A stretch of 64,000 nucleotides of DNA from an uncultured Candidatus Berkelbacteria bacterium (GCA_963698075.1 OY969116.1:670131-734130); one strand, 5' to 3'. Shown: positions 3,093-61,724, numbered from the stretch's first letter. Numbers and translations are program-made. Notes: a model not told the origin generated them from the sequence alone.

Positions 3093-3175
3093 CATATGTT
3101 AGTATAGAAGTACCTGAACAACTTCTCCTGTTGGATAACAGGTTTGGGATAACACTACGGATAAGGAGGCGCACC

Positions 3176-4666
3176 ATGTTGCGTCTGAAAGGGATGGTCG
3201 TTGTGCTGGTCGTTCTGGCGGCGATGCTTTCTCAGGTTGCCACCAGGGCCGATGAGGCCACAACCCAGAAGGTGGTCGCTGGTCTGATGGTGCTCAATGC
3301 CCTTCGGGGCACGAGCGATTCTGAACTGCTCCAGATAGGCCGCCAGCTCGATGAAGGGCTGGTACGCCAATACGGCACAACCACCAACGGGCTCGCAAGG
3401 GCCCAGAGAGTGGTCGCCAGATTGGAGCCTCACACAGCCAAGCGGCCAGAGGTCAAGGTTCTGAATTCTGCCGAGGTCAATGCCATGGCTGTTCCTGGCC
3501 ATGTCTATGTCACCTCGGCGCTCTTGTCCCAGGCCAACGACGATCAGTTCGCCGGCGTGATGGGGCATGAACTGTCTCACATCGAAGCCGGCCACTGCCG
3601 CCGGGCGATCAACCGGGCACGCATTGCTCAGGGTGTTGGTGGGGTACTGTATTTGGCCAACGCCAACCAGTCCATCGCCACCGGCGTCTCGCTTCTCGCC
3701 CTCGCCACGATTTTCGACTACAGCCGGGGCGAGGAATACGAGGCCGACAAGCTCGGAGCCGAACGCGCCAGCCAAGCCGGCTACAGTCATGACGGCTTGG
3801 CTTCGTTCCTCGAGCGCAGTGAAGGCAACAGCGACCGGGCCAACCAGTTGCTGTCATCGCACCCCCGCACCGACCGCCGCGTCACCGCCTTACGAGAGGG
3901 CAACGCCGGCTCGGTTCGGGCGACATCGGCCGGCACGGTTCGGGGCTCGGTGGTGGAGAAGTTTTCCGTCAGCTTCACCGGCATGAACAGCGAGCAGTTC
4001 AGCCAGGGCTTCCTGCTGTTGGCTGACCATGAAGGCCAGCCGGTAGATGTGCTGGACTCGGGAGGGGATTATCCGATCCAGCTTAACGGCGATCAGCGCG
4101 ACCTGCCGCTCGGGGTCAATGTCTCGACCAGCGGCCGCGACGGCTATGTCAATACTGGCGTGACCGATCGGATGACGTGGGTGTTGGTGGCTGATATCTA
4201 CCAAGGCAATCGCCGTCTGACGCCCGAATCGGCTAGCGCTTCCGGCTGGCGTGGGTATCTCCATGCCGGCAAGTTCACGTCGCATGGGGCTGTTACCCTC
4301 GATTTCTACAACTCCTACCTGGGCGAGTCTCTCCAGGGTCAGGCCGTCAGGGGGTTGGTGCCGATCGTGCTCCACCGACTGCAAGAGCAGGAACGCCTGA
4401 GGGTCGCCAATCAGCCGCGGGAAGCGACAGGCGATGGATCCGTCGAGCCCGCTGCCACATACCGCTATATTCTGATGCTGAATCGGGAAGTCCCAGTGGC
4501 GCTTTCCCGGTCGCTCAGCAACGACTCGCCAATCGGCATCTATCGAGGGAGCCATCAGATCGGCTCCCTCAAGGTTGACTGGTTTAACAATGACCACACC
4601 AAGGTGTGGGTCTCCGGGGACACAGGTGTCGCTCAACAGAAAGGCGTCACCTTCAAGTCCCTATGA
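3176..4666 (+). CDS. secreted M48-family zinc metalloprotease with a roughly 300-aa C-terminal extension (GC-rich xenolog)
   Basis: HELSH zinc motif followed by EEYEADKLGAE (third-ligand Glu, M48 signature). N-terminal signal peptide MLRLKGMVVVLVVLAAMLSQVA. SD AAGGAGG 7 nt before the ATG at 3176 (the ORF track's upstream M at 3131 lacks an SD). Composition is much more GC/Ala/Gly/Arg-rich than the neighbours. Confidence 0.7.
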   Translation: MLRLKGMVVVLVVLAAMLSQVATRADEATTQKVVAGLMVLNALRGTSDSELLQIGRQLDEGLVRQYGTTTNGLARAQRVVARLEPHTAKRPEVKVLNSAEVNAMAVPGHVYVTSALLSQANDDQFAGVMGHELSHIEAGHCRRAINRARIAQGVGGVLYLANANQSIATGVSLLALATIFDYSRGEEYEADKLGAERASQAGYSHDGLASFLERSEGNSDRANQLLSSHPRTDRRVTALREGNAGSVRATSAGTVRGSVVEKFSVSFTGMNSEQFSQGFLLLADHEGQPVDVLDSGGDYPIQLNGDQRDLPLGVNVSTSGRDGYVNTGVTDRMTWVLVADIYQGNRRLTPESASASGWRGYLHAGKFTSHGAVTLDFYNSYLGESLQGQAVRGLVPIVLHRLQEQERLRVANQPREATGDGSVEPAATYRYILMLNREVPVALSRSLSNDSPIGIYRGSHQIGSLKVDWFNNDHTKVWVSGDTGVAQQKGVTFKSL

Positions 4667-14783: not shown

Positions 14784-15020
14784 CTACGATTCCGAGAGTA
14801 GTTCGTTGACCTCGTTGATTGCCCGCACGATCTTCTCGTGCATGTCGGCCGGGCTCTCCGATAGTGCCTTCTGAAGGGCTTCTTCTCTCGGCATCCCGTC
14901 GGCGACGGCCTCGAAGTAAATCGCCATCTCGCGCGCGATTTTGCCCTCCTCCTCGGCGGCGGCTCCCAGCTCATCCAGCCACTTCTGTGCATCCGGCGGC
15001 GGCGACTGGCAGGAAGACAT
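14784..15020 (-). CDS. small acidic helical protein (79 aa), GC-rich cassette, unknown function
   Basis: SD GAAAGGA 6 nt before the ATG at 15020 (the ORF track's upstream M at 15056 lacks an SD). Own terminator. High-GC composition contrasts with the flanks. Confidence 0.35.
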   Translation of the reverse strand: MSSCQSPPPDAQKWLDELGAAAEEEGKIAREMAIYFEAVADGMPREEALQKALSESPADMHEKIVRAINEVNELLSES

Positions 15021-15123
15021 GGCACATCCTTTCTTGCGGAAAAGATAGAGACGCAACGCTTGCGCTTAACAAGAACATAGCATATTAATAAAAAATGATC
15101 AATAGAATAAAATAACTAATTTC

Positions 15124-15222: not shown

Positions 15223-16554
15223 ATGAAGATATCCCCAAAAACAACCAAAATTGCCATTTGTGGTTTGGGATATGTTGGTTTTCCAGTGGCTTTGCTATTT
15301 GCCAAGGCTGGTTTCACGGTTGTGGGCATTGATGTCAATGAGGAAAAAATTCGAAAAATCATTCGCGGCGGCAATCCAATCGAAGGCAAAGAACCAGGGC
15401 TTAAAGAATTGATTAATTTTATTCGCAAACAAGGCCGGTTTGCGGCGACGGTTGAACCCGCTGCCTATCAGGAAGCTGACGTGATTATCGTGGCGGTGGA
15501 AACCCCGGTTGAAGAGGAAACCCACGAACCCGCTTATCGGGCCTTGAAAGCCGCCTTGCGGACCATTGGTCGTAATCTTAAAAAAGATGTTTTAATCATC
15601 ATTGAATCAACGATTGCGCCGCAAACAATGGCCAAAGTTGTCCAGCCGATTTTGGAAGAAGAATCTGGTTTAACCACCGGCCAAGATTTTCTACTGGCGA
15701 ATTGTCCGGAACGCCTGATGCCGGGACACTTGATCGAAAACATCATCAATTACAATCGTGCCATCGGCGCCGAGGATCAAAAAACCGCCGAATTGACGAG
15801 ATCGCTTTACAAATACATTGTGCGTGGAAAACTCGAGACCACGAATTGGGTGACGGCGGAGGTGGTCAAAGCCGGGGAAAATGCTTATCGCGACGTTCAA
15901 ATTGCTTTTGCCAACGAAATGGCTTTACTTTCTGAGGCCGTTGGCGCCAACGTTTGGGAGGTTCGTTATTTAATTAATGAATGTAAGCGCCGTGGAGAAA
16001 CAAGATTTGAAGCCCTCAGGCAAATGCATCTTCCTGGCGCCGGCGTCGGCGGTCATTGCCTGCCCAAGGATTCTTGGCTTTTAGTTTATGGCGCCCGAGA
16101 TTTAATCGAGCCCAAACTTATTCCTTTAGCACGGCGGATCAATAATTTTATGCCCCGCCATATGACTGAGCTTTTAAAAGATGCCTTTCGTCAAATCGAA
16201 AAACCTATCGTCAAGAGCAAAATTGCCGTTTTGGGTTACGCTTATGCTGGCAATTCTGATGATAGCCGCAACACCCCCACCGAAGAATTGCTGAAGATCT
16301 TGAAAAATTCAGAAGCCAGCATCGTTATCCATGACTCTTATATCAAAGAATACAAAGTCTCCCTCGATAAAGCCCTCAAGGGGGCGCAGGCGCTCGTCTT
16401 GATGGCTGATCATGACCAATACAAAAAACTAAGTTACAATAAACTTAAGCGGCTAATGAAAAAAAATCCCATTATTATTGACGGCCGCAATTGTTTCAAT
16501 AAAGAAAAAATTCAACTGGCAGGATTCATCTATATGGGAGTGGGAAATATCTGA
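15223..16554 (+). CDS. UDP-N-acetyl-D-glucosamine/mannosamine 6-dehydrogenase (WbpA/WecC-type nucleotide-sugar dehydrogenase)
   Basis: N-terminal Rossmann motif IAICGLGYVGFPVA. Catalytic GGHCLPKD motif. Size 443 aa. Confidence 0.8.
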   Translation: MKISPKTTKIAICGLGYVGFPVALLFAKAGFTVVGIDVNEEKIRKIIRGGNPIEGKEPGLKELINFIRKQGRFAATVEPAAYQEADVIIVAVETPVEEETHEPAYRALKAALRTIGRNLKKDVLIIIESTIAPQTMAKVVQPILEEESGLTTGQDFLLANCPERLMPGHLIENIINYNRAIGAEDQKTAELTRSLYKYIVRGKLETTNWVTAEVVKAGENAYRDVQIAFANEMALLSEAVGANVWEVRYLINECKRRGETRFEALRQMHLPGAGVGGHCLPKDSWLLVYGARDLIEPKLIPLARRINNFMPRHMTELLKDAFRQIEKPIVKSKIAVLGYAYAGNSDDSRNTPTEELLKILKNSEASIVIHDSYIKEYKVSLDKALKGAQALVLMADHDQYKKLSYNKLKRLMKKNPIIIDGRNCFNKEKIQLAGFIYMGVGNI

Positions 16555-16563
16555 GGAGGAAAA

Positions 16564-17571
16564 TTGAAATTATTGGCTCCGGCTAATCCAGGGGAACTAT
16601 CGGATCGCGAGCGTTGGTTTAAAATGCCCGAAGCAAGAAAATTAGCCCAACAAAAAAGGGTAATATTCGGGATTGAGATGAAGGGACCGCTGGAAAATAT
16701 CCAAGAAGCCCCACCCGTATATTGGGGTTTACATCTGCCCGATACGCTGGCGACCGAATGGTACTACCATCCCGCTAGAAGAGAGGCGATGACGAGGGAG
16801 GTCGAGCGGGTGGCAAAACTTAAACCCGCTTATGCGGTTTTGCACGGTATCCATCTTCTCTGGCACCCACCAACAAGAGAGTATATTCAGCGTTACGCTA
16901 ATCGCAGCGATGCCGCAGAATATCTCAAAATCCTTGACGAAAATATTAAATTCATCCAAAGAATTAAAACAATTCTGCCTATAAGGATCGAAAATTTCCC
17001 TCTTTATAATTATTACCAAAAAGATGGTGAATTTTTGCCGGAAACTTATCTTTATACGGGCATTGGCCGCCTTAATGATTTATTTTATCTTAAACAAAAA
17101 ACCGGAGTCGACATTTTATTGGATCTTGAGCATTTGATTTTAACGATTAATTTTCTCAATCGCCGGCGCAATTATCATAAACTACCCAAAGAAAATCCTG
17201 GCAAGTTGAAAAGGGAAGAAAAAACCGCCAAGGATATCTTCGGCTTTTATCTGAAGAAAAATTTGATTCCTTATGCGGATGAGGAGATTAAAATGGAAAA
17301 GATAATCAAAAAAATCGGGGCTAAATTTTATCACCTGACTGGCTCAGTTCAAGATGTCATTCCTGGCAAAAAAATTATCACTCATGGCCCGATTAAAATT
17401 TCTGACAAAACTTTTCGGAAAAATTTGCGGTCGATTCTTGCTCAAAAACCTGAAGTATTGGTGGTGGAGACCGCCAGCTTTGCCGACTCTAATGCCTGGA
17501 AACATCTTCGTCCCAACGAAACCGAGATTTCGTTTAATAACTTGTGTGAGATTTTGTTAGAAGAACTCTAA
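16564..17571 (+). CDS. TIM-barrel-like (xylose isomerase / AP-endonuclease-2-like) hypothetical protein, paralog 1 (AT-rich copy)
   Basis: Shares the motifs G(I/F)xxKG, WxxH(L/P), (L/V)xIHxxxx, D.EH...T.NF and (I/L)xH.G with the next two genes. TTG start after a GAGGAGGA SD. Confidence 0.45.
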   Translation: MKLLAPANPGELSDRERWFKMPEARKLAQQKRVIFGIEMKGPLENIQEAPPVYWGLHLPDTLATEWYYHPARREAMTREVERVAKLKPAYAVLHGIHLLWHPPTREYIQRYANRSDAAEYLKILDENIKFIQRIKTILPIRIENFPLYNYYQKDGEFLPETYLYTGIGRLNDLFYLKQKTGVDILLDLEHLILTINFLNRRRNYHKLPKENPGKLKREEKTAKDIFGFYLKKNLIPYADEEIKMEKIIKKIGAKFYHLTGSVQDVIPGKKIITHGPIKISDKTFRKNLRSILAQKPEVLVVETASFADSNAWKHLRPNETEISFNNLCEILLEEL

Positions 17572-17605
17572 TCCGACGAATCTTTTCACTCATTAGTCAC
17601 GAATT

Positions 17606-17634
17606 GGGGTCGAATTCTCGGCCCGTTTTTGTTT
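17606..17634 (+). terminator. rho-independent terminator GGGGUCGAAUUCUCGGCCCG + U5
   Basis: 7-bp stem including one G-U pair, 4-nt loop, then a T-run. A near-identical copy lies at 18909-18941. Confidence 0.6.
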
Positions 17635-17653
17635 ACCCTGAGCCAAGTCGAAG

Positions 17654-17690
17654 GGTTGACAATTATTAGACAATGATGTTAATCTAAAAT
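17654..17690 (+). promoter_or_regulatory. candidate promoter TTGACA-17 bp-TTAATC upstream of paralog 2
   Basis: Consensus -35 and a weak -10. Followed by an AAGGAGGA SD. Confidence 0.3.
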
Positions 17691-17717
17691 GTCGAATATC
17701 CGGCAAGGAGGAGATCG

Positions 17718-18887
17718 GTGCAACTTGAAAAGACATCGTTGGTATCACCTTTAGGCAAAGGTGACTATGAGAGAGGTGAACGCTGGGTGTTAATGAAGGC
17801 TTTGTATCCAAGACTGGCAAAGTACGATTGGACTTTAGGGATTGATTTCAAAGGCAATAGTTTGGAGCCCGAAAAATGGGTTCTTGATATCGCCGATGAG
17901 ATTCGTAATTGGGGAGGGTTCTTGGGCTGGCATCCTTCTAAAGTTGTTTCCGAAAGCCTCGGTGATCCAAAAGAGCCGCTACCGCCGTCCCTTCTGAAAT
18001 GCGCCAGACAAGCAAAATCCTTAGGTTTGAAACTGCTGACCATTCATTCAGCTGCCAAAACTGAAAATGAGCCCGGACCTGAAGCTGGACTTGGACGTTA
18101 CAGTTCAACCACCACGCCTGAAGAAGATCTGGCCAGGATTGAGGCAATGATTGATCCTCTCTGTCAAGCGGCTGAAGCTTCTGGTGGAGTCTTAAGTTTG
18201 GAGCCAACTGATATGGCCCAATTCCGCGATGGCGGCTATCATTTGCCGACCTTCAAAGAGCAAATTTGGGCCGGTATGCTTGAGATGTTGCTTTATCTCC
18301 GTTCAAAGGTTGAAGAGCGTTCAGGCATTCGTATGCCGATGACATTCGATGACGAACATGTCCTCGGGCTCTGGAACTTCAAAGCTCGCCGCCGTGATTT
18401 GGCGAGTCTTCCCTGGTGGCAACCAGCAAAGCCTAGGCCGGCGCAGGTTGAGCTGGCTGACATCACCGGTTGTTGGTTTGAAAAAGGAATGCCGCCGGTT
18501 TTGCTCGAGCGGCCGCCGGATTACGCCACTGATTTGGAATGGGATATGGCGATCATCAACGACGGGCTGAAAAAGTCTCAACCGGTCTTGATCCATACTG
18601 GGGCCAGCGTTCAGGCAACAAGATACAATCCCCAGACCGCTCAGGATGAAATTGACACCCATCTTCCCTATAATGCCTTCGACACCGACCAGATGACCTT
18701 GCTCGATCTGAAGTTGCAATATGCCGTCAGCCATCCTGACTGCTATGGTATAGAAAACGAAGTAGTGGGAAGCGGTTTTTTGCTGGGGCGCTACAGTCCT
18801 TGGAGCCCACGACCATTTGATAATGAGATGGCAATGTTTCTTTCAGCGGTGGTAGAAGTCGACCGCATAGCAGCGATATCAAGCTAA
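17718..18887 (+). CDS. TIM-barrel-like hypothetical protein, paralog 2 (GC-rich copy)
   Basis: Homologous to 16564-17571 (motifs GIDFKGNSLE, LGWHPS, LTIHSAAK, LIHTGAS). GTG start 5 nt after the AAGGAGGA SD. High GC. Confidence 0.5.
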   Translation: MQLEKTSLVSPLGKGDYERGERWVLMKALYPRLAKYDWTLGIDFKGNSLEPEKWVLDIADEIRNWGGFLGWHPSKVVSESLGDPKEPLPPSLLKCARQAKSLGLKLLTIHSAAKTENEPGPEAGLGRYSSTTTPEEDLARIEAMIDPLCQAAEASGGVLSLEPTDMAQFRDGGYHLPTFKEQIWAGMLEMLLYLRSKVEERSGIRMPMTFDDEHVLGLWNFKARRRDLASLPWWQPAKPRPAQVELADITGCWFEKGMPPVLLERPPDYATDLEWDMAIINDGLKKSQPVLIHTGASVQATRYNPQTAQDEIDTHLPYNAFDTDQMTLLDLKLQYAVSHPDCYGIENEVVGSGFLLGRYSPWSPRPFDNEMAMFLSAVVEVDRIAAISS

Positions 18888-18908
18888 ACATAATAACTAG
18901 TGGACAAC

Positions 18909-18941
18909 GGGTCGAACTCTCGGCCCGTTTTTCGTTTTTTT
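18909..18941 (+). terminator. rho-independent terminator GGGUCGAACUCUCGGCCC + U-tract (copy of 17606-17634)
   Basis: Same stem as the upstream copy, with one loop substitution, followed by tttttcgttttttt. Confidence 0.6.
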
Positions 18942-19057
18942 GAACCTGTTTTAACGGCTCAGGTGGTGAGCCGGTGAGCCGTTGACTATTTTGCTGATAA
19001 TGATATATTAAAAAGCCCCGCGTGGCGGAAAGCGAACCTCACAACCGAGGCAAGGAG

Positions 19058-20188
19058 ATGAAAGAGTCTACCCCTGCTTTGTTTTTGCCACTTGGCAGTC
19101 GAGACTGGATCGGACAAGACACTCCAAGACATCTTTTCCTCAGAAGCGTTGAGACAAAGCTCAAAGATCTAGGACTAAGACCGGGATGGGGATTCAGGGG
19201 CAACCAATTGCCAATCGACGGTTGGGCGGGTGATTGCGCCGAAGATGCCGTCTCGCGTGGCTGGTCACTGAATTGGCATCCAGGCTATGACGCTGCTTTT
19301 GGCATCGCTCTTAAAGGCGAACTGACACCGAAGCTAATCGAAATTGGCGAAATCGCTCGGCGTTTCAAAGAGACCTTTGATCTTGAAGCGCTAGTGATTC
19401 ACCCTGATGCTCTTCAGCTCGGTGGACCGGAAGACCCCAAGGCAGATCTCGAACGCTACAACTCAAAGCTAACGGCAGCTCAGGTTCTTCGTGGCATCAA
19501 AAACCATGTACCGGCACTGCGCGAACTCAATGAGATCTGCGGTGGGATACTTCTCATCGAGAATGTTCATACCTGCCTCTTCAATGAAAAGACGGCTGAT
19601 GAGCTACCAACCTATTATGCCGCCCAGCTTGGCCATCTGGATTTGGCTTGGATGGCCGAGCAAGCGGGAATCGGTACCGTCCTTGACTCCGAGCACTTCT
19701 TTGGAACCTTCAATTTTATCTACCGGCTGCAGGATTTCTGGGATCCGGCGGAGCCGCCGCAAAAGAAGCTAACCCCCGTCCAAGCCGAGTTAGCCAACAT
19801 CGCTGGGTACTATGTTTATGAGAACGATGCTCCGTGGGGCACCCTGCCCATGAACTTCTTCCCTCAGTATCTTGAGCTGCTCAAGCCAAGACTATTCCAT
19901 CTTGGCGGCTCATTGCGGCTGGTTGATGAGCATGGCCGGGTTAACACCCACATCGAGACCAATACCCTTGATCCAAGTCAAAGACTAGTTCTTTTGCTCC
20001 AACTGGACTACATGAGAAAGCATGGCGGCCTTGGTGCTGAAGTCGAAGTTGATTCCCGGCCGGGCTGGTCTGAACCACGCTCGGCCGACGGCAATGTGGC
20101 CAAGTTGCGGGAATACCTGACCATTATGGACGCCTACGAGAAACTCCAGAAGGGGGTTTGGAAGGTCGATCCCAGCATCAAGCTCTAA
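19058..20188 (+). CDS. TIM-barrel-like hypothetical protein, paralog 3 (GC-rich copy)
   Basis: Homologous to the previous two (GFRGNQLPID, LNWHPG, LVIHPDAL, DSEHFFGTFNF, LFHLGGS). The start is either the ATG at 19058 after GAGGCAAGGAG or the GTG at 19022. Confidence 0.5.
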   Translation: MKESTPALFLPLGSRDWIGQDTPRHLFLRSVETKLKDLGLRPGWGFRGNQLPIDGWAGDCAEDAVSRGWSLNWHPGYDAAFGIALKGELTPKLIEIGEIARRFKETFDLEALVIHPDALQLGGPEDPKADLERYNSKLTAAQVLRGIKNHVPALRELNEICGGILLIENVHTCLFNEKTADELPTYYAAQLGHLDLAWMAEQAGIGTVLDSEHFFGTFNFIYRLQDFWDPAEPPQKKLTPVQAELANIAGYYVYENDAPWGTLPMNFFPQYLELLKPRLFHLGGSLRLVDEHGRVNTHIETNTLDPSQRLVLLLQLDYMRKHGGLGAEVEVDSRPGWSEPRSADGNVAKLREYLTIMDAYEKLQKGVWKVDPSIKL

Positions 20189-20201
20189 CTACGACCTGAT
20201 T

Positions 20202-20233
20202 CCGGGCCCCGCTCAGCGGAGCCCTTTCTTTTT
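20202..20233 (+). terminator. rho-independent terminator CCGGGCCCCGC-TCA-GCGGAGCCC + TTTCTTTTT
   Basis: 9-bp stem with one mismatch, followed by a T-tract. Marks the end of the GC-rich block. Confidence 0.55.
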
Positions 20234-20271: not shown

Positions 20272-21156
20272 ATGCCTTGGTTTTTTTATTCCTTGCTGGG
20301 TTTTGCCTTAAGTCCGGGCTATTCCTTGACCCAGAAATGGGCTCTCAATTTGAAGATCAATAAAACCAAGCTTTTAACTTATACTTTTTTAGGCCTGCTA
20401 GTTTGTTATTTAATTTATAATCTTCTCAGTGATCCTCAAACTCTTTGGCTCAAAATTCAATCACCCAGCTTTCATCTCTGGGGCTTGCTGGCCGCTGCCC
20501 TCTCGCTGGCAGGCAATATTTTCTCCACCAATGCGGTTGAAAAAAGTCCCAACCCAGGTTATGTTCAGGCCGTTACCTCAACCAATGCTTTGTTAGTTCT
20601 CCTCATTTCCATTATTCTTTTTCGCTCGCCGATTACTTGGTTGAAGTTCCTCGGCGTGCTGGTAATCATTTTAGGCCTCGGTTTAATCCTGATCACTAAA
20701 CGAGAGAAGAAAAAACTTGCCCATTGGCAATTATCGGCTGTCGTTGCCATGTTAAGTTTCGGCGCCATGTTTTTAGTCGTCAAAGAGATGGCTAATCTGG
20801 GGATAAATTCGGCCGAGATTCTCTTAATTTTATTTTTTTATGCCTCAATTGGGTTTTTGATTTTAAGTCATTTTCAAAGAATAAGTCTCGGTCTTGAGAA
20901 TACCCCTCGACGAGTGATCGTGCCCATTGCTCTCTTAATTCTGGTTTCCTTTTTTACCAATTTATTCAACTTTATGGCTATCAAATTAGTGAGCAATCCC
21001 GGCTATTCAACCGCCATTTTTAACTCGGCGGTGATATTGACGCTCTTGCTTTCGCCCCTGGTATTTCCCAAAAGTGCTGGAGGGGAATTCAACGCCCGAA
21101 AATGGCTGGGGGTGGCGGTTACGGTTGGCGGAATTCTTCTTATTGTTTTGGGTTAG
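20272..21156 (+). CDS. DMT-superfamily (EamA-like) membrane transporter
   Basis: Ten predicted TM helices in two repeats. Size 294 aa. Confidence 0.5.
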   Translation: MPWFFYSLLGFALSPGYSLTQKWALNLKINKTKLLTYTFLGLLVCYLIYNLLSDPQTLWLKIQSPSFHLWGLLAAALSLAGNIFSTNAVEKSPNPGYVQAVTSTNALLVLLISIILFRSPITWLKFLGVLVIILGLGLILITKREKKKLAHWQLSAVVAMLSFGAMFLVVKEMANLGINSAEILLILFFYASIGFLILSHFQRISLGLENTPRRVIVPIALLILVSFFTNLFNFMAIKLVSNPGYSTAIFNSAVILTLLLSPLVFPKSAGGEFNARKWLGVAVTVGGILLIVLG

Positions 21157-21279
21157 AATTATCCCCCTCTTGACATTTCTTGACGAATAATTTAAATTCT
21201 GCGACGCTGAGGACAGCAAATTCGTTTAAGAAAATATTGAGCTCATAACAATTACATTTAAAGATTCATAGGAGGCGAA

Positions 21280-22254
21280 GTGAAATTAAACGCAGCAGTT
21301 ATTGGTGTTGGCAATATGGGCCGTCATCATGCCCGTAATTATCATGAAATTCCTGGGGTATGTTTGGCAGCGATCGCTGACAGCGATCAAAAAATCGCCA
21401 GAGAAATCGCTGATAAATACGACGCCCGGGCCTATAGCGATTATCACCAAATGCTTGAAACCGAAAAATTAGATGTCGTTTCCATTGCCGTGCCCACCGA
21501 GCTCCATAAAAAAATCGCCATCGATTGTATTACCAAAGGTATCCATATCTTGATCGAAAAACCCATTGCCGCCACGGTCTCCGAGGCTAAAGAGATTGTT
21601 CAGAAGGCCAAAAATAAAGGCATTAAATTTACGGTCGGCCACATTGAACGTTTCAATCCTGCAGTCCTAAAGCTTAAGGAGATGATTGAGGCGGGAAAAC
21701 TAGGCGAAATTGTCACTATTGCCACCTTCCGTTTGGGACCGACCCCGACGCAAATCAGAGATGCCAACGTCGTCATTGATATTGCCGTCCATGACATTGA
21801 TATTATGAACTGGCTTTTTGGCAAGTTACCCCAAAAGATCACCGCTTATGGGGGAAATGCCTTACACCGAACCAAAGAAGATCATGTCGAAGCCTTTTTA
21901 AACTATGGCCAGGGAACTGGACTTTTAGTTGCCAACTGGATAACTCCTCTCAAAGTCAGGAAACTGACAGTCTCGGGTAAAAAAGCTTACGTGGAACTCA
22001 ATTACATTACCCAGGAGCTTGATTATTATGAAACCAATATTATGCCAGTTTATGATGACTTTGGTGATTTTTTAATTAAGTTCGGCGAAGCCCAGGATAA
22101 AAAAGTCATCACTGTCAAAAATATTGAGCCGCTCAGGGCAGAAATCTTAGCTTTTATTGATTGCATTAAAAAAGATTGTCGACCGATGGTCACGGCCCGC
22201 GAAGCGATTGAGGCTTTAGACATTGCCCATAAGATTAATAGATTAATTAAATAA
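21280..22254 (+). CDS. Gfo/Idh/MocA-family NAD-dependent oxidoreductase (WbpB-like UDP-sugar 3-dehydrogenase)
   Basis: N-terminal AVIGVGNMGRHHARNY. EKP motif. GTG start after an AGGAGG SD. Co-located with WbpD- and WbpE-like genes. Confidence 0.75.
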   Translation: MKLNAAVIGVGNMGRHHARNYHEIPGVCLAAIADSDQKIAREIADKYDARAYSDYHQMLETEKLDVVSIAVPTELHKKIAIDCITKGIHILIEKPIAATVSEAKEIVQKAKNKGIKFTVGHIERFNPAVLKLKEMIEAGKLGEIVTIATFRLGPTPTQIRDANVVIDIAVHDIDIMNWLFGKLPQKITAYGGNALHRTKEDHVEAFLNYGQGTGLLVANWITPLKVRKLTVSGKKAYVELNYITQELDYYETNIMPVYDDFGDFLIKFGEAQDKKVITVKNIEPLRAEILAFIDCIKKDCRPMVTAREAIEALDIAHKINRLIK

Positions 22255-22935
22255 ATGCCAGTCAAAAAAAGACTCAAAAAATTAAAAAAACCATCCAAGC
22301 CGCGTTTTTTTGCCCATAAAAGCGCTGTCATCGAAGATAATGTTAGTGTGGGAGAAGGTTCAAAGATTTGGCATTTCGCTCATGTCCGGCACGGCACCAA
22401 AATCGGCATAAACTGTGTCATTGCCAAATCAGTTTTCATCGATTTTAAATCAGAAATAGGCGATAATGTTAAAATCCAAAACCACGCGATTATTTATCAT
22501 AAGGCCATGATTGAGGATGGTGTTTTTATCGGTCCCAATGTCTGTTTTACCAATGATAAAATTCCTCGAGCTATTAATCCTGACGGCACCCCCAAAAAAG
22601 CAGGCGATTGGCAGGTGACGACCATTCATATCGGTCAAGGTGCCTCAATTGGAGCGCATTCAGTTATTCTGCCAGGGGTGCAAATTGGTGAATTCGCCTT
22701 GGTCGGCTCGGGTTCAGTGGTGACTAAAAATGTTCCTGATTTTGCGCTTGCCTTTGGCAACCCCGCCCGCATAAGAGGATTTGTCTGTCGCTGCGGCCGA
22801 AAAATTAAAGAATTTATTGAGACTGACACTGTTATCGTTGGCAAATGTCATTGCGGACTCAATATTCAAGTCGATCGTCAATCTTTCCAACAACTTAAAT
22901 CGGAAGAACCCAAAAAGAGAATTTGGTTAAGATAA
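22255..22935 (+). CDS. hexapeptide-repeat (LbH) N-acetyltransferase, WbpD-like, with C-terminal Cys4 zinc ribbon
   Basis: Repeated [LIV]G.N hexapeptides. C-terminal CRCGRK...CHCG. Confidence 0.7.
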   Translation: MPVKKRLKKLKKPSKPRFFAHKSAVIEDNVSVGEGSKIWHFAHVRHGTKIGINCVIAKSVFIDFKSEIGDNVKIQNHAIIYHKAMIEDGVFIGPNVCFTNDKIPRAINPDGTPKKAGDWQVTTIHIGQGASIGAHSVILPGVQIGEFALVGSGSVVTKNVPDFALAFGNPARIRGFVCRCGRKIKEFIETDTVIVGKCHCGLNIQVDRQSFQQLKSEEPKKRIWLR

Positions 22936-23687
22936 TGGAATATCTTCAATCTGCTTGGAAAATTAAGATTCCTAAAGTTCAAAGAGATGACGTGTCGTCT
23001 AAAAATTACATTGCGGTCGCTTTGTCTTTACCACCCGCTTATTACAGAAAACGTCTTAAAAAAATTGGTTTTTGGGGAAAGGACACTGAATTATTAGATG
23101 CCGGTTGCGGCGCCGGTCATTGGGCAATTGCCGCCTCGTATCTTAATGAGAAAGTCAGCGGGATTGATTTGACGGAAAATTATCTAAACATTGCCAAAAA
23201 AATTAATGGCCAATTCAAGCGAAAAAATCTTCATTTAAAACTTGGCCGACTGGAAAATTTGCCCGATCCCGATTGCTCCTTTGATTTTATCCTCTGTTAC
23301 AACGCCTGGATGTATACCAACCGCCCAGAAAGTTTGCAAGAAATGACTCGAGTTTTAAAGCCGGGAGGGAAAATTTATTTAGGTTGTATCGCTGGTCTTG
23401 GCTGGTATTTATATCTCTTGAGCCATGGATTCAAAAAGAATAAACGCTCTTTAATTTTTGATTCTCTGAAGGCGATTAAAAGAAAAGTCTACACCACCGA
23501 ACAAGAAACAAAAAAGCTGCTAAAAAAACAAGGTTTAAAAATTCTGGGAATCGGGGCTGATGGTCAATTAGGCGATCCAAAAATCAAAGTTACCCCCGTC
23601 GGCCCAGCTAAAAAGTTTGGTTTTTGGAATGTTTATGAAGTCTTGGCCGAGAAGCCAAAATTATCGAAGGGAATGAATGAAAATTAA
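22923..23687 (+). CDS. class I SAM-dependent methyltransferase
   Basis: Motif I LDAGCGAGHW. Motif post-I VLKPGGKIYLG. Confidence 0.7.
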   Translation: MVKIMEYLQSAWKIKIPKVQRDDVSSKNYIAVALSLPPAYYRKRLKKIGFWGKDTELLDAGCGAGHWAIAASYLNEKVSGIDLTENYLNIAKKINGQFKRKNLHLKLGRLENLPDPDCSFDFILCYNAWMYTNRPESLQEMTRVLKPGGKIYLGCIAGLGWYLYLLSHGFKKNKRSLIFDSLKAIKRKVYTTEQETKKLLKKQGLKILGIGADGQLGDPKIKVTPVGPAKKFGFWNVYEVLAEKPKLSKGMNEN

Positions 23688-24801
23688 CATTGCCTCTCCT
23701 CAAATTGGTCAAGAAGAAATTAAAGCTGTTGTTGAGGTCCTTAAATCCGGCATGTTGGCTCAAGGACCCAAAGTCGCGGAATTTGAAAGAAATTTCGCCC
23801 GTTTTATTGGTACCAAATATGCCGTTGCCACTTCTTCCGGCACAACGGCTTTACATGTGGCCCTGCTGGCCCACGGCCTTGGCCCAGGTGATGAAGTTAT
23901 TACCTCACCCTTTACTTTCATCGCCACCGCCAATTCGATTCTTTATACTGGCGCTCGGCCGGTTTTTGCCGACATCGACGAAAGAACTAATAATGCGTAT
24001 AATATCGACCCAGAAAAGATCGAAAAATTAATTAATAAGAAAACTCGAGCCATCATACCAGTTCATCTTTACGGGGCTGCTTGCGACATGACGAGGATTA
24101 TGGCGATCGCCAGAAAGCACAAACTGATAGTTATTGAAGACGCCTGTCAAGCTCATGGCGCCAAGTGGAAAGACAAAAAAGTCGGTTCCTTCGGCACTGG
24201 AACCTTTTCTTTGTATCCGACTAAGAATATGACGACCGGTGAGGGCGGGATGATCACCACCAATTCACGAACAATCTATGAAAAAGCCAATTTAATCCGG
24301 GCCCATGGGTCCCGGGTTCGTTACTATCATGAAGTTTTAGGTTATAATTTTCGGATGACTGATCTTGAGGCGGCTATTGGTATTGAACAACTCAAAAAAT
24401 TGCCAAAACTTAACCGCTTACGTCAAAAAAACGCCGCTTATTTATCAAAGAATTTAGCCAAGATTCACGGTATTATTATTCCAGCTCCTGATAATAATGC
24501 TAACCATGTTTTGCATGCGTGGCATCAATATACCATTCGGATAACTCCGGAATTTGGTCTTTCCCGCGATGCATTTTTAGCTAAATTAACCGAAAGCTCC
24601 ATTGGCACTGCTGTCTTTTATCCCTTGCCGATTAACGAGCAGAAGTTGTATCAAGACTTGGGTTTTAAACCCAATACGCCCGTTGCCGCCAAAGTCGCCA
24701 AAGAAGTCATATCTTTACCTGTTCATCCCGGATTAAAGAAAAGAGATTTAGATTATATCATCAAAACTATCCGAAGCCTGGCGGCAAAAAATGCCCACTA
24801 A
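23677..24801 (+). CDS. DegT/DnrJ/EryC1/StrS-family PLP-dependent sugar aminotransferase (WbpE-like)
   Basis: Conserved TSSGTTALHVAL. PLP-lysine region FSLYPTKNMTTGEGG. Confidence 0.85.
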   Translation: MKINIASPQIGQEEIKAVVEVLKSGMLAQGPKVAEFERNFARFIGTKYAVATSSGTTALHVALLAHGLGPGDEVITSPFTFIATANSILYTGARPVFADIDERTNNAYNIDPEKIEKLINKKTRAIIPVHLYGAACDMTRIMAIARKHKLIVIEDACQAHGAKWKDKKVGSFGTGTFSLYPTKNMTTGEGGMITTNSRTIYEKANLIRAHGSRVRYYHEVLGYNFRMTDLEAAIGIEQLKKLPKLNRLRQKNAAYLSKNLAKIHGIIIPAPDNNANHVLHAWHQYTIRITPEFGLSRDAFLAKLTESSIGTAVFYPLPINEQKLYQDLGFKPNTPVAAKVAKEVISLPVHPGLKKRDLDYIIKTIRSLAAKNAH

Positions 24802-25468: not shown

Positions 25469-26450
25469 AAACAAAAATATTTTAGTCACTGGCGGCGCCG
25501 GTTTTATTGGCAGCCATTTGGTAGATAAATTGATTTTAGAAAAACCGGCCAAAATTGTGGTGGTGGACAATTTTTTCTTAGGTAAGATGGAAAATCTGAA
25601 TAAGGCACGAAAAAATTTTAAAAACCTGCCGGCAGGCAGGCAGGGTCTAAAAATTATCAAACAAGACGCGACCGAATTCGAGCCAATAAAAAAGATAATT
25701 TCTCGAGAAAAAATTAACGTTGTTTTTAATCTAGCGACCAAAGCCCTGGAACATTCTTTCGTTGATCCTGACGACGCTTATATGGTTAATGTCAACATAG
25801 CCAGCGTCCTTCTTCGACTTTTGCATCAAAAAAAATATCAGACCCTCATTCATTGTTCTTCGTCTGAAGCTTATGGCACAGCGCAAAAAATCCCCATCAA
25901 TGAAAGACACCCACTCTGTCCCCAGACTCTCTATGCCGCCGGCAAAGCTGCCGCTGATTTGATGGTGATGTCCTATTATAAAACTTACAAATATGATTTG
26001 GCGATCGCCCGGCCTTTTAACACCTATGGCCCCCGACAAAATGAAGGCGTTTATGCTGCGGTCATTCCCATCACCATCAAAAGAATTCTATCTGGCAAAA
26101 GGCCAATTTTACACGGCGACGGCCAACAAACCCGCGATTTTATCTATGTCGATGACACTGCCAGGGGAATTATTGAAATCTATAAGCATCGCCAAACCCG
26201 AGGCAAAGCGATTAATATTGCTTATGGCCAGGAAATTAAAATTAAGGATTTAATTGCCATCATTATGAAAGAAATGGCTTACAAGGGAAAGGTTTGGCGA
26301 AAACCAAAGCGACCTGCTGACGTTTTGCGCCATCTGGCTGACAATAGATTGGCTAAAGAATTGATCGGGTTTTGGCCGGAATATAAATTTCAAGAAGGGA
26401 TGCAAGAGACTATTGATTGGTTTAGAGAAAAATCCAAGGATTCAAAATAA
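25449..26450 (+). CDS. NAD-dependent epimerase/dehydratase (extended SDR)
   Basis: VTGGAGFIGSHL Rossmann motif. Catalytic YAAGKAAAD. Confidence 0.8.
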   Translation: MPMPTLKNKNILVTGGAGFIGSHLVDKLILEKPAKIVVVDNFFLGKMENLNKARKNFKNLPAGRQGLKIIKQDATEFEPIKKIISREKINVVFNLATKALEHSFVDPDDAYMVNVNIASVLLRLLHQKKYQTLIHCSSSEAYGTAQKIPINERHPLCPQTLYAAGKAAADLMVMSYYKTYKYDLAIARPFNTYGPRQNEGVYAAVIPITIKRILSGKRPILHGDGQQTRDFIYVDDTARGIIEIYKHRQTRGKAINIAYGQEIKIKDLIAIIMKEMAYKGKVWRKPKRPADVLRHLADNRLAKELIGFWPEYKFQEGMQETIDWFREKSKDSK

Positions 26451-27427
26451 TGGCCAACTTAACTTTGAAAAAATATGAGCCGAATTTATTTGGGGCCTGG
26501 AATAAATTTGTCGAAACCTCGAATAATGGCACCATTTTTCACCGGCAAGATTTTCTTGCTTATCACGGCGATCGTTTTAAAAAGAATGAACACCATTTGG
26601 TCTGGTTTAAAGGTGATCAAATTTTTGCTTTAATGCCTTTAGGGATTTTTGAAGAAAAAGGCAAAAGAGTTGCCAAATCTCCCTTTGGCGCCAGTTGGGG
26701 CGGCTTGGTCATACCTTCGAAATTTAAGCTCAAATATGCTATGGGAATAGTTGAATCTTTGGTTGAATACCTTAAAAAAAGAAAAATTTCTGAATTTCTG
26801 GTCACGCCGACACCCGGTTGTTATTATCAAGAACTGAACAGCTATTTCGAGTTTGCTCTCACGGCTTTTGGTTCAAAATTAGTTAATCGGGATATCTTAA
26901 ATGTGACGAAAATCCCCGAAAAAGAAGACGAAATTTGGCAGGTCCCGGACCGAGAATGCCGCAATAAAATTAAAAATGCTCTAAGTGTTTTTAAAATAAA
27001 AGAAAATGTTTCAGCCAAAGATTTTTATCCGATCCTCTTGGCAGATAAAAGGCGCCATCACTCGGCGCCGACGCATTCTTTGGCAGATTTGGTATATTTA
27101 CAAAAAAACTTAAAAAATAAGATAAAATTTGATCTTGCTGTCAATATTGAAGACTACCAAGCCGGCATCTGTTATTTTATCGGCAATAAAAATTGCCAGA
27201 TGGCATTCTATATGTCTCAAGAGGATAAAGCCGTCGGTAAAAACGGGATTAATGCTCTGGTTTTCAAGGGTTTTAAAAATGCTGCCTGCGAAGGTTATCG
27301 GTTTATGGATTTCGGGATTTCTTCTATCAACAATCAAATATCAAATATAGGCTTAGTCGAATTTAAAGAAAGTCTTGGAGGGCATCACGGTTTTATAAGA
27401 GACACCTATCAATTAAAAATTAAATGA
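26450..27427 (+). CDS. hypothetical protein, possibly FemAB/GNAT-like acyltransferase
   Basis: Size and weak similarity of pattern only. Lies in the glycan locus. Confidence 0.3.
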   Translation: MANLTLKKYEPNLFGAWNKFVETSNNGTIFHRQDFLAYHGDRFKKNEHHLVWFKGDQIFALMPLGIFEEKGKRVAKSPFGASWGGLVIPSKFKLKYAMGIVESLVEYLKKRKISEFLVTPTPGCYYQELNSYFEFALTAFGSKLVNRDILNVTKIPEKEDEIWQVPDRECRNKIKNALSVFKIKENVSAKDFYPILLADKRRHHSAPTHSLADLVYLQKNLKNKIKFDLAVNIEDYQAGICYFIGNKNCQMAFYMSQEDKAVGKNGINALVFKGFKNAACEGYRFMDFGISSINNQISNIGLVEFKESLGGHHGFIRDTYQLKIK

Positions 27428-61046: not shown

Positions 61047-61652
61047 TTAACCCTCGGGCTGCTTTCCTACCTTTGTGACCGCATACATCTCTCGGAGGTA
61101 TTCTCTCCAGTACTCATCGTAGTCAACCGGTAGATAGTCCCGTGGATCAATCAGGTAGGTGGCACCCGAAACTAGTACCATTCTCGTAGGCATCAGGAAC
61201 GCCGCCGAGACCGCATCTTTCTCATGGACATCGACAGGAAGATCTGATTGGACATCTTGCGGCTTATCGGCAAGAACTAGTGTGACCTGTCGAAGGTTGC
61301 TGACGGGTCCATAGTGCTCGCGACTTGTTTCAACCATGTTCGCGAAGCAGCGATAGAAACGGTGCGTGCCCCTGACGACTAGATAGGCCCTAAGGCCATC
61401 CCTCTTGAGATGGACCAGGAGGCCTCGGTCCCATGTCCATTCGATACCGTCTTCAGGCACATCCCAGGTTCCGACGAGCCTAGGAGCGTTTGCCTTGGCA
61501 TTCGCCAGCCACTCTTTCTGTTCTTCTACGTAGTCCTGGGCCCTGGAAAAAGATCCCTTGAGAGGGTTCTCAAACGTGCCGTACCTCATCATCAGGAATA
61601 CGAGAAGGCCCAGAACCACAACCACCACAGTCATTTTCCCGGCGTATCTCAT
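61047..61652 (-). CDS. N-terminally membrane-anchored hypothetical protein (202 aa), GC-rich operon
   Basis: SD AAGGAGG 7 nt before the ATG at 61652. The longer GTG-initiated ORF in the track contains this SD. Signal-anchor MTVVVVVLGLLVFLMM. Confidence 0.45.
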   Translation of the reverse strand: MRYAGKMTVVVVVLGLLVFLMMRYGTFENPLKGSFSRAQDYVEEQKEWLANAKANAPRLVGTWDVPEDGIEWTWDRGLLVHLKRDGLRAYLVVRGTHRFYRCFANMVETSREHYGPVSNLRQVTLVLADKPQDVQSDLPVDVHEKDAVSAAFLMPTRMVLVSGATYLIDPRDYLPVDYDEYWREYLREMYAVTKVGKQPEG

Positions 61653-61724
61653 CTGAGGCGCCTCCTTATTTTGGGGTTCATTCACAACAGGTTCGGTTTT
61701 ACCCTATCCCATCGTGAACATAAG

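Follow-up and report, generated by a model that had tools for sequence, protein, structure and literature searches.

Ancient paralogs with a lasting contrast in base composition in a conserved glycan locus of Patescibacteria, probably sugar-tailoring metalloenzymes

When two clearly GC-richer genes stand directly downstream of a related gene of ordinary composition, are they recent arrivals or old residents? This question is raised by a stretch of 64,000 nucleotides from an uncultured Candidatus Berkelbacteria bacterium (GCA_963698075.1 OY969116.1:670131-734130; hereafter the window), in which three consecutive plus-strand genes, c1, c2 and c3, have guanine-plus-cytosine (GC) contents of 0.408, 0.500 and 0.528. 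A sequence-only reading of the window explained them as a native gene displaced or augmented by two copies from a high-GC donor. Our analysis favours another answer: with a probability of about 0.7, they are ancient paralogs in a conserved glycan locus of the candidate phyla radiation (CPR) that keep a lasting GC contrast and encode sugar-tailoring metalloenzymes.

The first gene, c1 (16564-17571, + strand), encodes 335 amino acids from a TTG start and is the constant member of the group (clade A below). It is followed by two accessory paralogs, c2 (17718-18887, +; 389 amino acids, GTG start; clade C) and c3 (19058-20188, +; 376 amino acids from ATG; GC at third codon positions, GC3, 0.56; clade D). 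The c3 frame also opens at GTG 19022, giving 388 amino acids, and ATG 19058, backed by the N-termini of orthologs and by database entry P0001, is taken as the start. The open reading frames (ORFs) of 335, 389 and about 377 amino acids proposed from the sequence were thus all found, and pairwise alignment bore out their homology: c2 and c3 share 27% identity over 365 amino acids (E 1e-24), c1 and c3 26% over 171 (E 7e-14), and c1 and c2 30% over 131 (E 8e-8). The ordered motifs noticed earlier in the three products are real conserved columns, in c1 numbering (used throughout) G36/K40, H57, H94, D187-E189-H190...N196-F197 and H257-G260. On these alignments, c1, c2 and c3 are taken to be true tandem paralogs that diverged anciently. 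Recent tandem duplication was rejected, because the copies are only 22-27% identical and DNA similarity was found at a terminator alone.

A neighbour-joining tree of the family proteins places c1, c2 and c3 in separate deep clades of one small family (L numbers below denote related loci or contigs, P numbers database entries). Clade A consists of c1 with the orthologs of this gene; clade B of the L002 middle gene together with L009, L019, L080 and P0131; clade C of c2 with P0093, L003mid, P0084 and L005x; and clade D of c3 with P0002-5 and L008b. Between c1 and the downstream EamA/Gfo genes lies a slot that contains zero to two accessory paralogs of clades B, C and D. It is empty of family paralogs in L006/L010. 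A single accessory paralog occupies it in L001 and L078 (D), in L009 and L019 (B), in L015 (C) and in L005 (C, degenerate), and two occur in L002 (B plus D), in L080 (B plus a further clade) and in the window, L003 and L008 (C plus D), the contigs of L003 and L008 stopping short of c1. Homolog search gave four orthologs of c3, with 46-51% identity. Between window and L001, window and L002, and L001 and L002, identities were 52, 52 and 63% for c1 and 51, 51 and 62% for c3, and by this measure c3 orthologs appear to diverge in step with c1 orthologs. Moreover, L008 carries an ortholog of c2 (42%) and then directly an ortholog of c3 (52%). Because c1 and c3 co-diverge and L008 keeps the tandem, c3 and the c2-c3 pair are judged to be old residents, which the common ancestor with other sampled genomes apparently possessed; hence the paralogs are neither recent duplicates nor acquisitions by this genome alone.

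The difference in composition appears to be lasting as well. The GC content of c1 equals that of the window (0.408), and c1 is therefore typical of its host genome and not unusually AT-rich, as had been supposed; the remark that its 5' third is GC-richer was right (about 0.50, against 0.33-0.40 for the remainder). Orthologs of c1 in L001 and L002 show the same 5'-to-3' gradient, which thus stems from the protein rather than from a junction. In nine other loci in which both could be measured, accessory paralogs exceed the c1 ortholog by 3-21 GC points. Examples, with the c1 ortholog given before its accessory paralogs, are L001 (.344/.438), L002 (.373/.517/.451), L005 (.418/.610), L009 (.361/.563), L015 (.351/.518), L019 (.376/.568), L078 (.368/.500) and L080 (.302/.507/.457). 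The GC offset is thus a stable, clade-wide trait of the accessory paralogs and gives no amelioration clock, and the suggestion that the copies stand at different stages of amelioration finds no support.

At the protein level, the accessory clades contain more G, A, R and P and less F, Y, M, I, N and K. G+A+R+P make up 0.28 of the residues of c2 and c3 but 0.23 of those of c1, and F+Y+M+I+N+K 0.21-0.22 against 0.34. Their description as GC-rich genes for Ala/Gly/Pro/Arg-rich products therefore holds for the amino acids, but with an excess of just about 10-12 points over the host neither is a high-GC gene. When the expected GC3 of each protein was predicted from the window's own codon usage, deviations corresponded to z 1.2 for c1, 2.3 for c2 and 6.0 for c3; the GC3 excess of c2 is unremarkable given its amino-acid content, and that of c3 is real. 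Three other genes of the window are GC3 outliers like c3. The excess in c3 stems from two-fold codons (fraction ending in C 0.48 and in G 0.57, against a background of about 0.25), and its four-fold sites match those of the host. Since the host too has about 0.55-0.6 GC at its four-fold sites, such a pattern fits either selection or origin from a genome of about 50% GC. An argument that c3 cannot be foreign, its four-fold sites being like those of the host, was dropped, because a donor of 50% GC would look alike. Host codon usage, compared over the window and loci L001, L005, L015, L078 and L080, is unusual in itself, with four-fold sites about 55-60% GC (window, L005 and L015) and two-fold codons only about 25% G/C-ending; accessory paralogs depart from host genes chiefly at two-fold codons.

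The intergenic joints offer a second line of evidence on the history of the slot. The first two genes are each followed by a hairpin and U-run, GGGTCGAATTCTCGGCCCGTTTTT (17607-17630, +) 36 nucleotides past the c1 stop and GGGTCGAACTCTCGGCCCGTTTTT (18909-18932, +) 22 nucleotides past the c2 stop. These 24-nucleotide repeats, 1302 bp apart, are identical at 23/24 positions and occur in the window at these two places only, whereas 0.01 copies would be expected at random. Both fold, as the sequence-only reading had proposed (-15.1 and -18.2 kcal/mol; z -2.4 and -3.2), and run into five or more T; with a GC-rich hairpin, a U-run and a position 3' of a stop codon, they have the features of Rho-independent terminators. 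The terminator of c3, GGGCCCCGCTCAGCGGAGCCC with a T-run (20204-20233, +), differs from them. As to starts, c1 begins 9 nucleotides past the stop of the preceding dehydrogenase gene and is without a promoter of its own, and the accessory paralogs each have a promoter and terminator of their own. Shine-Dalgarno sequences with the proposed AAGGAG core could be read 5' of c2 (AAGGAGG, 17705-17711, +, 6 nucleotides from the GTG start) and of c3 (GAGGCAAGGAG, 19047-19057, +). The promoters had been described as TTGAC(A/T)-17-TAxxxT; sites do occur before both genes, but with other spacers. For c2, TTGACA, an 18-nucleotide spacer and TGnTAATCT can be read at 17656-17685 (+), a promoter-like site that scores under the threshold of the consensus promoter scan, and for c3 the scan found TTGACT-16-TATATT plus an upstream TG.

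The c3 promoter belongs to a conserved module, GAACCTGTTTTAACGGCTCA...TGAGCCGTTGACT (18942-19009, +), located in the c2-c3 spacer 3' of the terminator. It forms a perfect 9-bp palindrome (AACGGCTCA-N-TGAGCCGTT), whose 3' arm overlaps the -35 TTGACT (18982-18987), and the -10 TATATT follows at 19004-19009. Across genomes whose proteins are about 50-60% identical the module recurs as GAACCTGTTTKAACGGCTCA-N4-6-TGAGCCGTTGACT, at L019 2270-2292 and 5630-5673, L050 1589-1611 and L008 420-442. In L019 and L050 it lies 5' of an accessory paralog (clades B and C), in L019 also 5' of the dehydrogenase gene, and in L008 it shows the same architecture with a compensated stem. A scan of metagenome contigs for the terminator gave 60 matches, of which 56 are chance matches in contigs of 48-73% GC, none with a T-run next to it; the real terminator (exact 19-nucleotide stem-loop plus T-run) occurs in four low-GC contigs, L019, L048, L050 and L056. 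It stands between c1 plus a small ORF and the clade B paralog in L019, and 5' of the clade C paralog in L050. Because a neutral spacer should not outlast the divergence seen in L019, whose c1 ortholog is 58% identical to c1, the joint modules owe their persistence either to selection, as terminator and operator, or to spread through recombination; the palindromic promoter module could act as operator or as recombination joint. Furthermore, the two terminator copies enclose exactly the promoter and c2, which fits exchange of cassettes at the joints without c2 itself being new. The proposed integration scaffold of gene plus terminator therefore survives in part: the copies bracket promoter and c2 and the joints recur elsewhere, but c2 is no recent insertion.

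Outside the family locus, an identical terminator, AACGGGTCGAACTCTCGGCCCGTTTTTTT, was seen at L048 1037-1055 and L056 285-303, one of these sites adjoining an IS200/Y1-type transposase ORF, and the hairpin may be a dispersed element like repetitive extragenic palindromic (REP) sequences in these low-GC genomes. An integron cassette was considered, by the criteria of an integrase nearby and attC sites of 57-141 bp bearing R/L boxes at the ends of the cassette, and rejected, because no integrase occurs in the region and the repeats are simple 19-24-nucleotide hairpins. Separately, the 5' leaders of accessory paralogs (L001 7867-8000; L002 3707-3833 and 4950-5080; L003 503-640 and 1742-1875; L009 2510-3070) show a -10 box, a hairpin, (A/G)CCTTGA(A/C)AA and then a Shine-Dalgarno GGGGGA. 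The leader CCUUGA is able to pair with an upstream UCAAGG or with AAGG adjoining the Shine-Dalgarno sequence, so that a switch acting on translation is possible; in the window, Rfam gave no family match.

The setting of the three genes is itself conserved. About 9.7-60 kb of the window is a glycan region with GT4 and GT2 transferases, a Wzm/Wzt exporter, flippases, two Asn-synthase-like amidotransferases and a WecB-like 2-epimerase, and Pfam and NCBIfam place sugar-pathway genes on both sides of the triplet, in agreement with the locus type first suggested. Upstream of c1 lies a nucleotide-sugar 6-dehydrogenase gene (WbpA/WecC-like; 15223-16554, +), whose product has the N, central and C domains of Pfam UDPG_MGDP_dh and scores 365 bits with the NCBIfam nucleotide sugar dehydrogenase model and 363 bits, under the equivalog cut-off, with the UDP-ManNAc (uridine diphosphate-N-acetylmannosamine) dehydrogenase model. 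Downstream (20272-24801, +), the same two databases point to genes for an EamA transporter, a Gfo/Idh/MocA protein resembling UDP-GlcNAc (UDP-N-acetylglucosamine) 3-dehydrogenase, an N-acetyltransferase of the hexapeptide type, a methyltransferase and a DegT aminotransferase. Contigs of Patescibacteria, Berkelbacteria and Saccharibacteria (L001, L005, L006, L015/L016 and L078) repeat the order dehydrogenase, c1, variable slot, (EamA), Gfo, acetyltransferase, (methyltransferase), DegT, and the c1 ortholog lies directly 3' of the dehydrogenase ortholog in most related loci. All full-length relatives (E below 1e-19) whose neighbourhood was fetched lie in this Patescibacteria locus; a weak relative in an unrelated pilus/GGDEF context (P0147) was not used. 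The Wbp route leads to UDP-2,3-diacetamido-2,3-dideoxy-uronic acids (PMC10622841), and all five of its enzyme classes (6-dehydrogenase, 3-dehydrogenase, aminotransferase, N-acetyltransferase and 2-epimerase) are found in the window, below NCBIfam equivalog cut-offs. This suggests that the sugar of the locus is a 2,3-diacetamido-2,3-dideoxy-hexuronic acid, with its exact identity inferred because those cut-offs are not reached.

The family itself is small, rare and unnamed, and has no curated model. Pfam gave no PF01261 match for c1 and c3 and 16.3 bits for c2 against a cut-off of 31.1, and only 3/77 relatives matched PF01261 (best E 2.7e-8). NCBIfam gave a single faint match, c1 to CbiR (E 0.08; 12 bits against a cut-off of 105). 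When 1.84 billion representatives were searched exhaustively with a profile, 97 clusters were returned, and a search of 185,579 species genomes with a c1-only alignment returned four loci, all from Patescibacteria or Saccharibacteria. The word-indexed homolog search yielded no relative of c2, and the exhaustive profile search found some. Searches of PDB sequences with c3 and the family profile gave chance matches only, with no endonuclease IV among them, and a literature search found no paper on the family. The predicted structure is a (beta/alpha)8 barrel and matches other members of the xylose-isomerase-like superfamily on superposition, in line with the divergent xylose-isomerase/AP-endonuclease-2-like barrel first suggested; the top Foldseek match is TTHB071, which may be a CbiR relative.

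Conserved residues give a more specific lead. H57, H94, E143, D187, H190, H257, H274 and E302 are conserved in 80-83 of the 83 aligned sequences and all kept in c1, c2 and c3, and E189 is conserved in 71/83. In the model, the acidic and His residues among these putative ligands sit at predicted strand ends, as metal ligands of the superfamily do. Endonuclease IV binds its three metals through nine ligands, H69, H109, E145, D179, H182, H216, D229, H231 and E261. Local hhalign alignment of the family profile with endonuclease IV (E. coli Nfo plus Apn1) pairs H94 with H109, E143 with E145, D187/H190 with D179/H182, H257 with H216, H274 with H231 and E302 with E261. The Nfo ligand numbering is established endonuclease IV knowledge (Hosfield 1999, as cited in PMC7733943). 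The eight residues may thus correspond to tri-metal ligands of endonuclease IV, with E189 perhaps in place of the D229 equivalent; because the hhalign score is weak, we treat the resemblance as a lead about the active site and not as membership. The E-D-H-E subset (E143, D187, H257 and E302), in epimerases a single-metal site with two catalytic Glu, is invariant and does not discriminate between epimerase and endonuclease IV, because it is common to both. Overall, the putative ligand set appears to be of the fuller endonuclease IV/MNIO type, which includes the epimerase subset.

Comparison with known enzymes also shows how far the family stands apart. Endonuclease IV works in DNA repair, whereas the family sits in a context of glycan synthesis; similarity between them is seen through profiles only, and the family differs from endonuclease IV in additional beta-hairpins and in an insertion of 45 residues that follows strand 6. 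CbiR, of the same superfamily, is a precedent for an endonuclease IV-like fold that acts on a small-molecule phospho-ester and not on DNA (PMC7733943). Unlike the situation for CbiR, no cobamide genes lie near the family, and the CbiR match of c1 is far under the cut-off. According to our model, c1, c2 and c3 would be cytoplasmic multinuclear metalloenzymes acting on a nucleotide-linked or lipid-linked uronic amino sugar made by the neighbouring genes. Candidate chemistries, between which we make no choice, are hydrolysis of a phospho-ester and, by way of an enolate that a metal stabilises beside a keto or carboxylate group, epimerisation or isomerisation. The paralogs would differ in substrate or product specificity, and slot content would thereby tune glycan structure. 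The terminators and the palindromic promoter module would be conserved joints, kept by selection or spread by recombination, and cassette gain, loss or replacement in the slot would probably take place at them. That all of this holds together, namely a new endonuclease IV/MNIO-like class of multinuclear metalloenzymes tailoring diamino-uronic sugars, with accessory cassettes that stay GC-richer than any of their hosts, recombine at the joints and diversify the surface glycan, is a tentative proposal that we think rather unlikely to be right in every part.

The history first proposed, in which c2 and c3 came recently from a high-GC donor on a terminator-unit scaffold and have ameliorated unequally, has several observations on its side. 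Both genes lie 9-12 GC points over the window, c3 is a GC3 outlier (z = 6.0), 24-nucleotide direct repeats bracket exactly the promoter and c2, the window holds other GC-rich islands, and slot content differs between close relatives, with an IS200-type transposase adjoining the 61% GC paralog of L005. We nevertheless consider recent import improbable. The orthologs of c3 co-diverge with those of c1 and L008 keeps the c2-c3 tandem, the GC offset occurs in nine other loci and so is not specific to this genome, the GC3 of c2 is ordinary for its amino-acid content (z = 2.3), and no high-GC relatives were found, the closer ones having moderate G+A+R+P and the same CPR context. What stands of the earlier claim is its milder half, that a native c1 is augmented by compositionally atypical relatives. 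That the adjacency of AT-rich and GC-rich genes is an assembly chimera could be suspected from the sharp composition steps at gene boundaries, but is hardly credible: all three proteins are encoded on one contig of 929,420 bp, and c1 followed by a GC-richer paralog is found in independent assemblies from other samples (L002, L009, L015, L019, L078 and L080).

For function, the strongest competitor, close to the sugar epimerase or isomerase that the sequence-only reading thought possible, is that these proteins are mononuclear epimerases or isomerases of the ketose-3-epimerase/YcjR type, their extra histidines being structural or substrate-binding, and their substrate a 3-keto UDP-sugar from the Gfo/Idh/MocA dehydrogenase or C5 beside the new carboxylate. 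Ketose 3-epimerases and the 3-keto-glucoside 4-epimerase YcjR (PF01261 group) indeed share the E-D-H-E site, but the family has four extra invariant histidines, is longer (335-390 against about 260-290 amino acids) and, unlike that group, has no Pfam match at gathering score; we regard this alternative as a serious one, although on balance unlikely. Multinuclear iron oxidases of the MNIO (DUF692) type, such as MbnB and TglH, which would modify a peptide or other substrate with O2, resemble the family in the type of ligand set, yet are a very unlikely answer. No DUF692 match was found in window proteins or relatives, no conserved locus has an MbnC/TglI-like partner or precursor peptide gene, the context is nucleotide-sugar metabolism, and the Patescibacteria that carry the family come from samples of sediment and groundwater and are probably mostly anaerobes; MbnB, moreover, presumably has Asn where the family has H190. 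Several points also weigh against the reading that we prefer, that of ancient paralogs acting as sugar-tailoring metalloenzymes in a conserved locus. Co-divergence was drawn from three or four genomes, the c3 GC3 excess (z = 6) may be compatible with an old foreign origin of the accessory clades, and in L005 the IS200-type transposase and 61% GC paralog show lateral replacement in the slot. The hhalign match to endonuclease IV is weak (probability 15%, pairwise E 0.0017; 1-15% over the alignments made) and puts the first His (H57, the H69 equivalent) 6 residues off, with H57 ending the equivalent strand; the position equivalent to D229 varies (I in c1, D in c2, N in c3); and substrate and reaction were deduced from the neighbours only.

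Related loci show further variation around the slot. In L005 (9012-10957), an IS200/Y1 transposase with REP-like palindromes on either side separates the c1 ortholog from the clade C paralog, which has lost 3/8 ligands (H94R, D187S and H257Q) and is probably inactive or decaying because of these losses. L080 (8001-14465) keeps the gene set in a changed order, with its clade B paralog 5' of the c1 ortholog; a third paralog (360 amino acids, GC 0.457) lies between two EamA genes, of which the upstream one has a GC content of 0.414 against 0.333, and this arrangement suggests a transporter-plus-paralog cassette. Small ORFs occur 3' of c1 in L001 (7318-7866, 182 amino acids) and L019 (5024-5395, 123 amino acids), 29% identical to each other (E 1e-10), and unrelated ones of 147-150 amino acids stand at the same place in L006, L015 and L080; the window has none there.

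Other parts of the window deserve mention in their own right. An M48 peptidase gene (3131-4666, +) has a GC content of 0.61, GC3 of 0.735 (z = 14.5) and strongly GC-shifted four-fold sites, and is the window's best candidate for a truly recent foreign gene. An ORF for 90 amino acids without Pfam match (14784-15056, -; GC3 0.74), with a strong 10-bp terminator at 14746-14724, is housed in the comF-dehydrogenase spacer, which measures 554 bp in the window against 33-310 bp in three measurable related loci, and looks like a small GC-rich insertion. Another ORF without Pfam match (61047-61685, -; 211 amino acids) has a codon signature like that of c3 (z = 5.1), with 52-61% of its two-fold codons G/C-ending and host-like four-fold sites. 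Neither Rfam, at the gathering threshold, nor a tRNA scan gave a match in the window, and hence its GC-rich patches are not known RNAs. Within the sugar-modification block, a 325-amino-acid protein without Pfam match (26450-27427, +) shows a weak, sub-cut-off NCBIfam match to a FemAB-family peptidyl-transferase (E 5e-12); attachment of an amino-acyl group to the sugar is a possible role.

Among known systems, the variable slots of O-antigen and capsule loci come close to the arrangement described here, since they too combine a conserved pathway backbone, a hot-spot of changing gene content and composition, and conserved non-coding joints. In contrast to those slots, the genes exchanged here are paralogs of one family and are always GC-richer, not AT-richer, than the host.

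Our results advise caution in one respect: the GC offset has lasted through co-divergence, and local GC contrast alone is thus unreliable as a sign of recent transfer. Patescibacteria have tiny genomes and rely on cell-surface contact with hosts, and to our knowledge their surface glycans are almost unstudied. The c1/c2/c3 family, placed in their main glycan locus with a variable slot for its paralogs, is therefore a target for new sugar-tailoring chemistry and for surface variation. We also know of almost no cis-elements in this group, and the exactly conserved terminator and the palindromic promoter are candidate regulatory or recombination elements.

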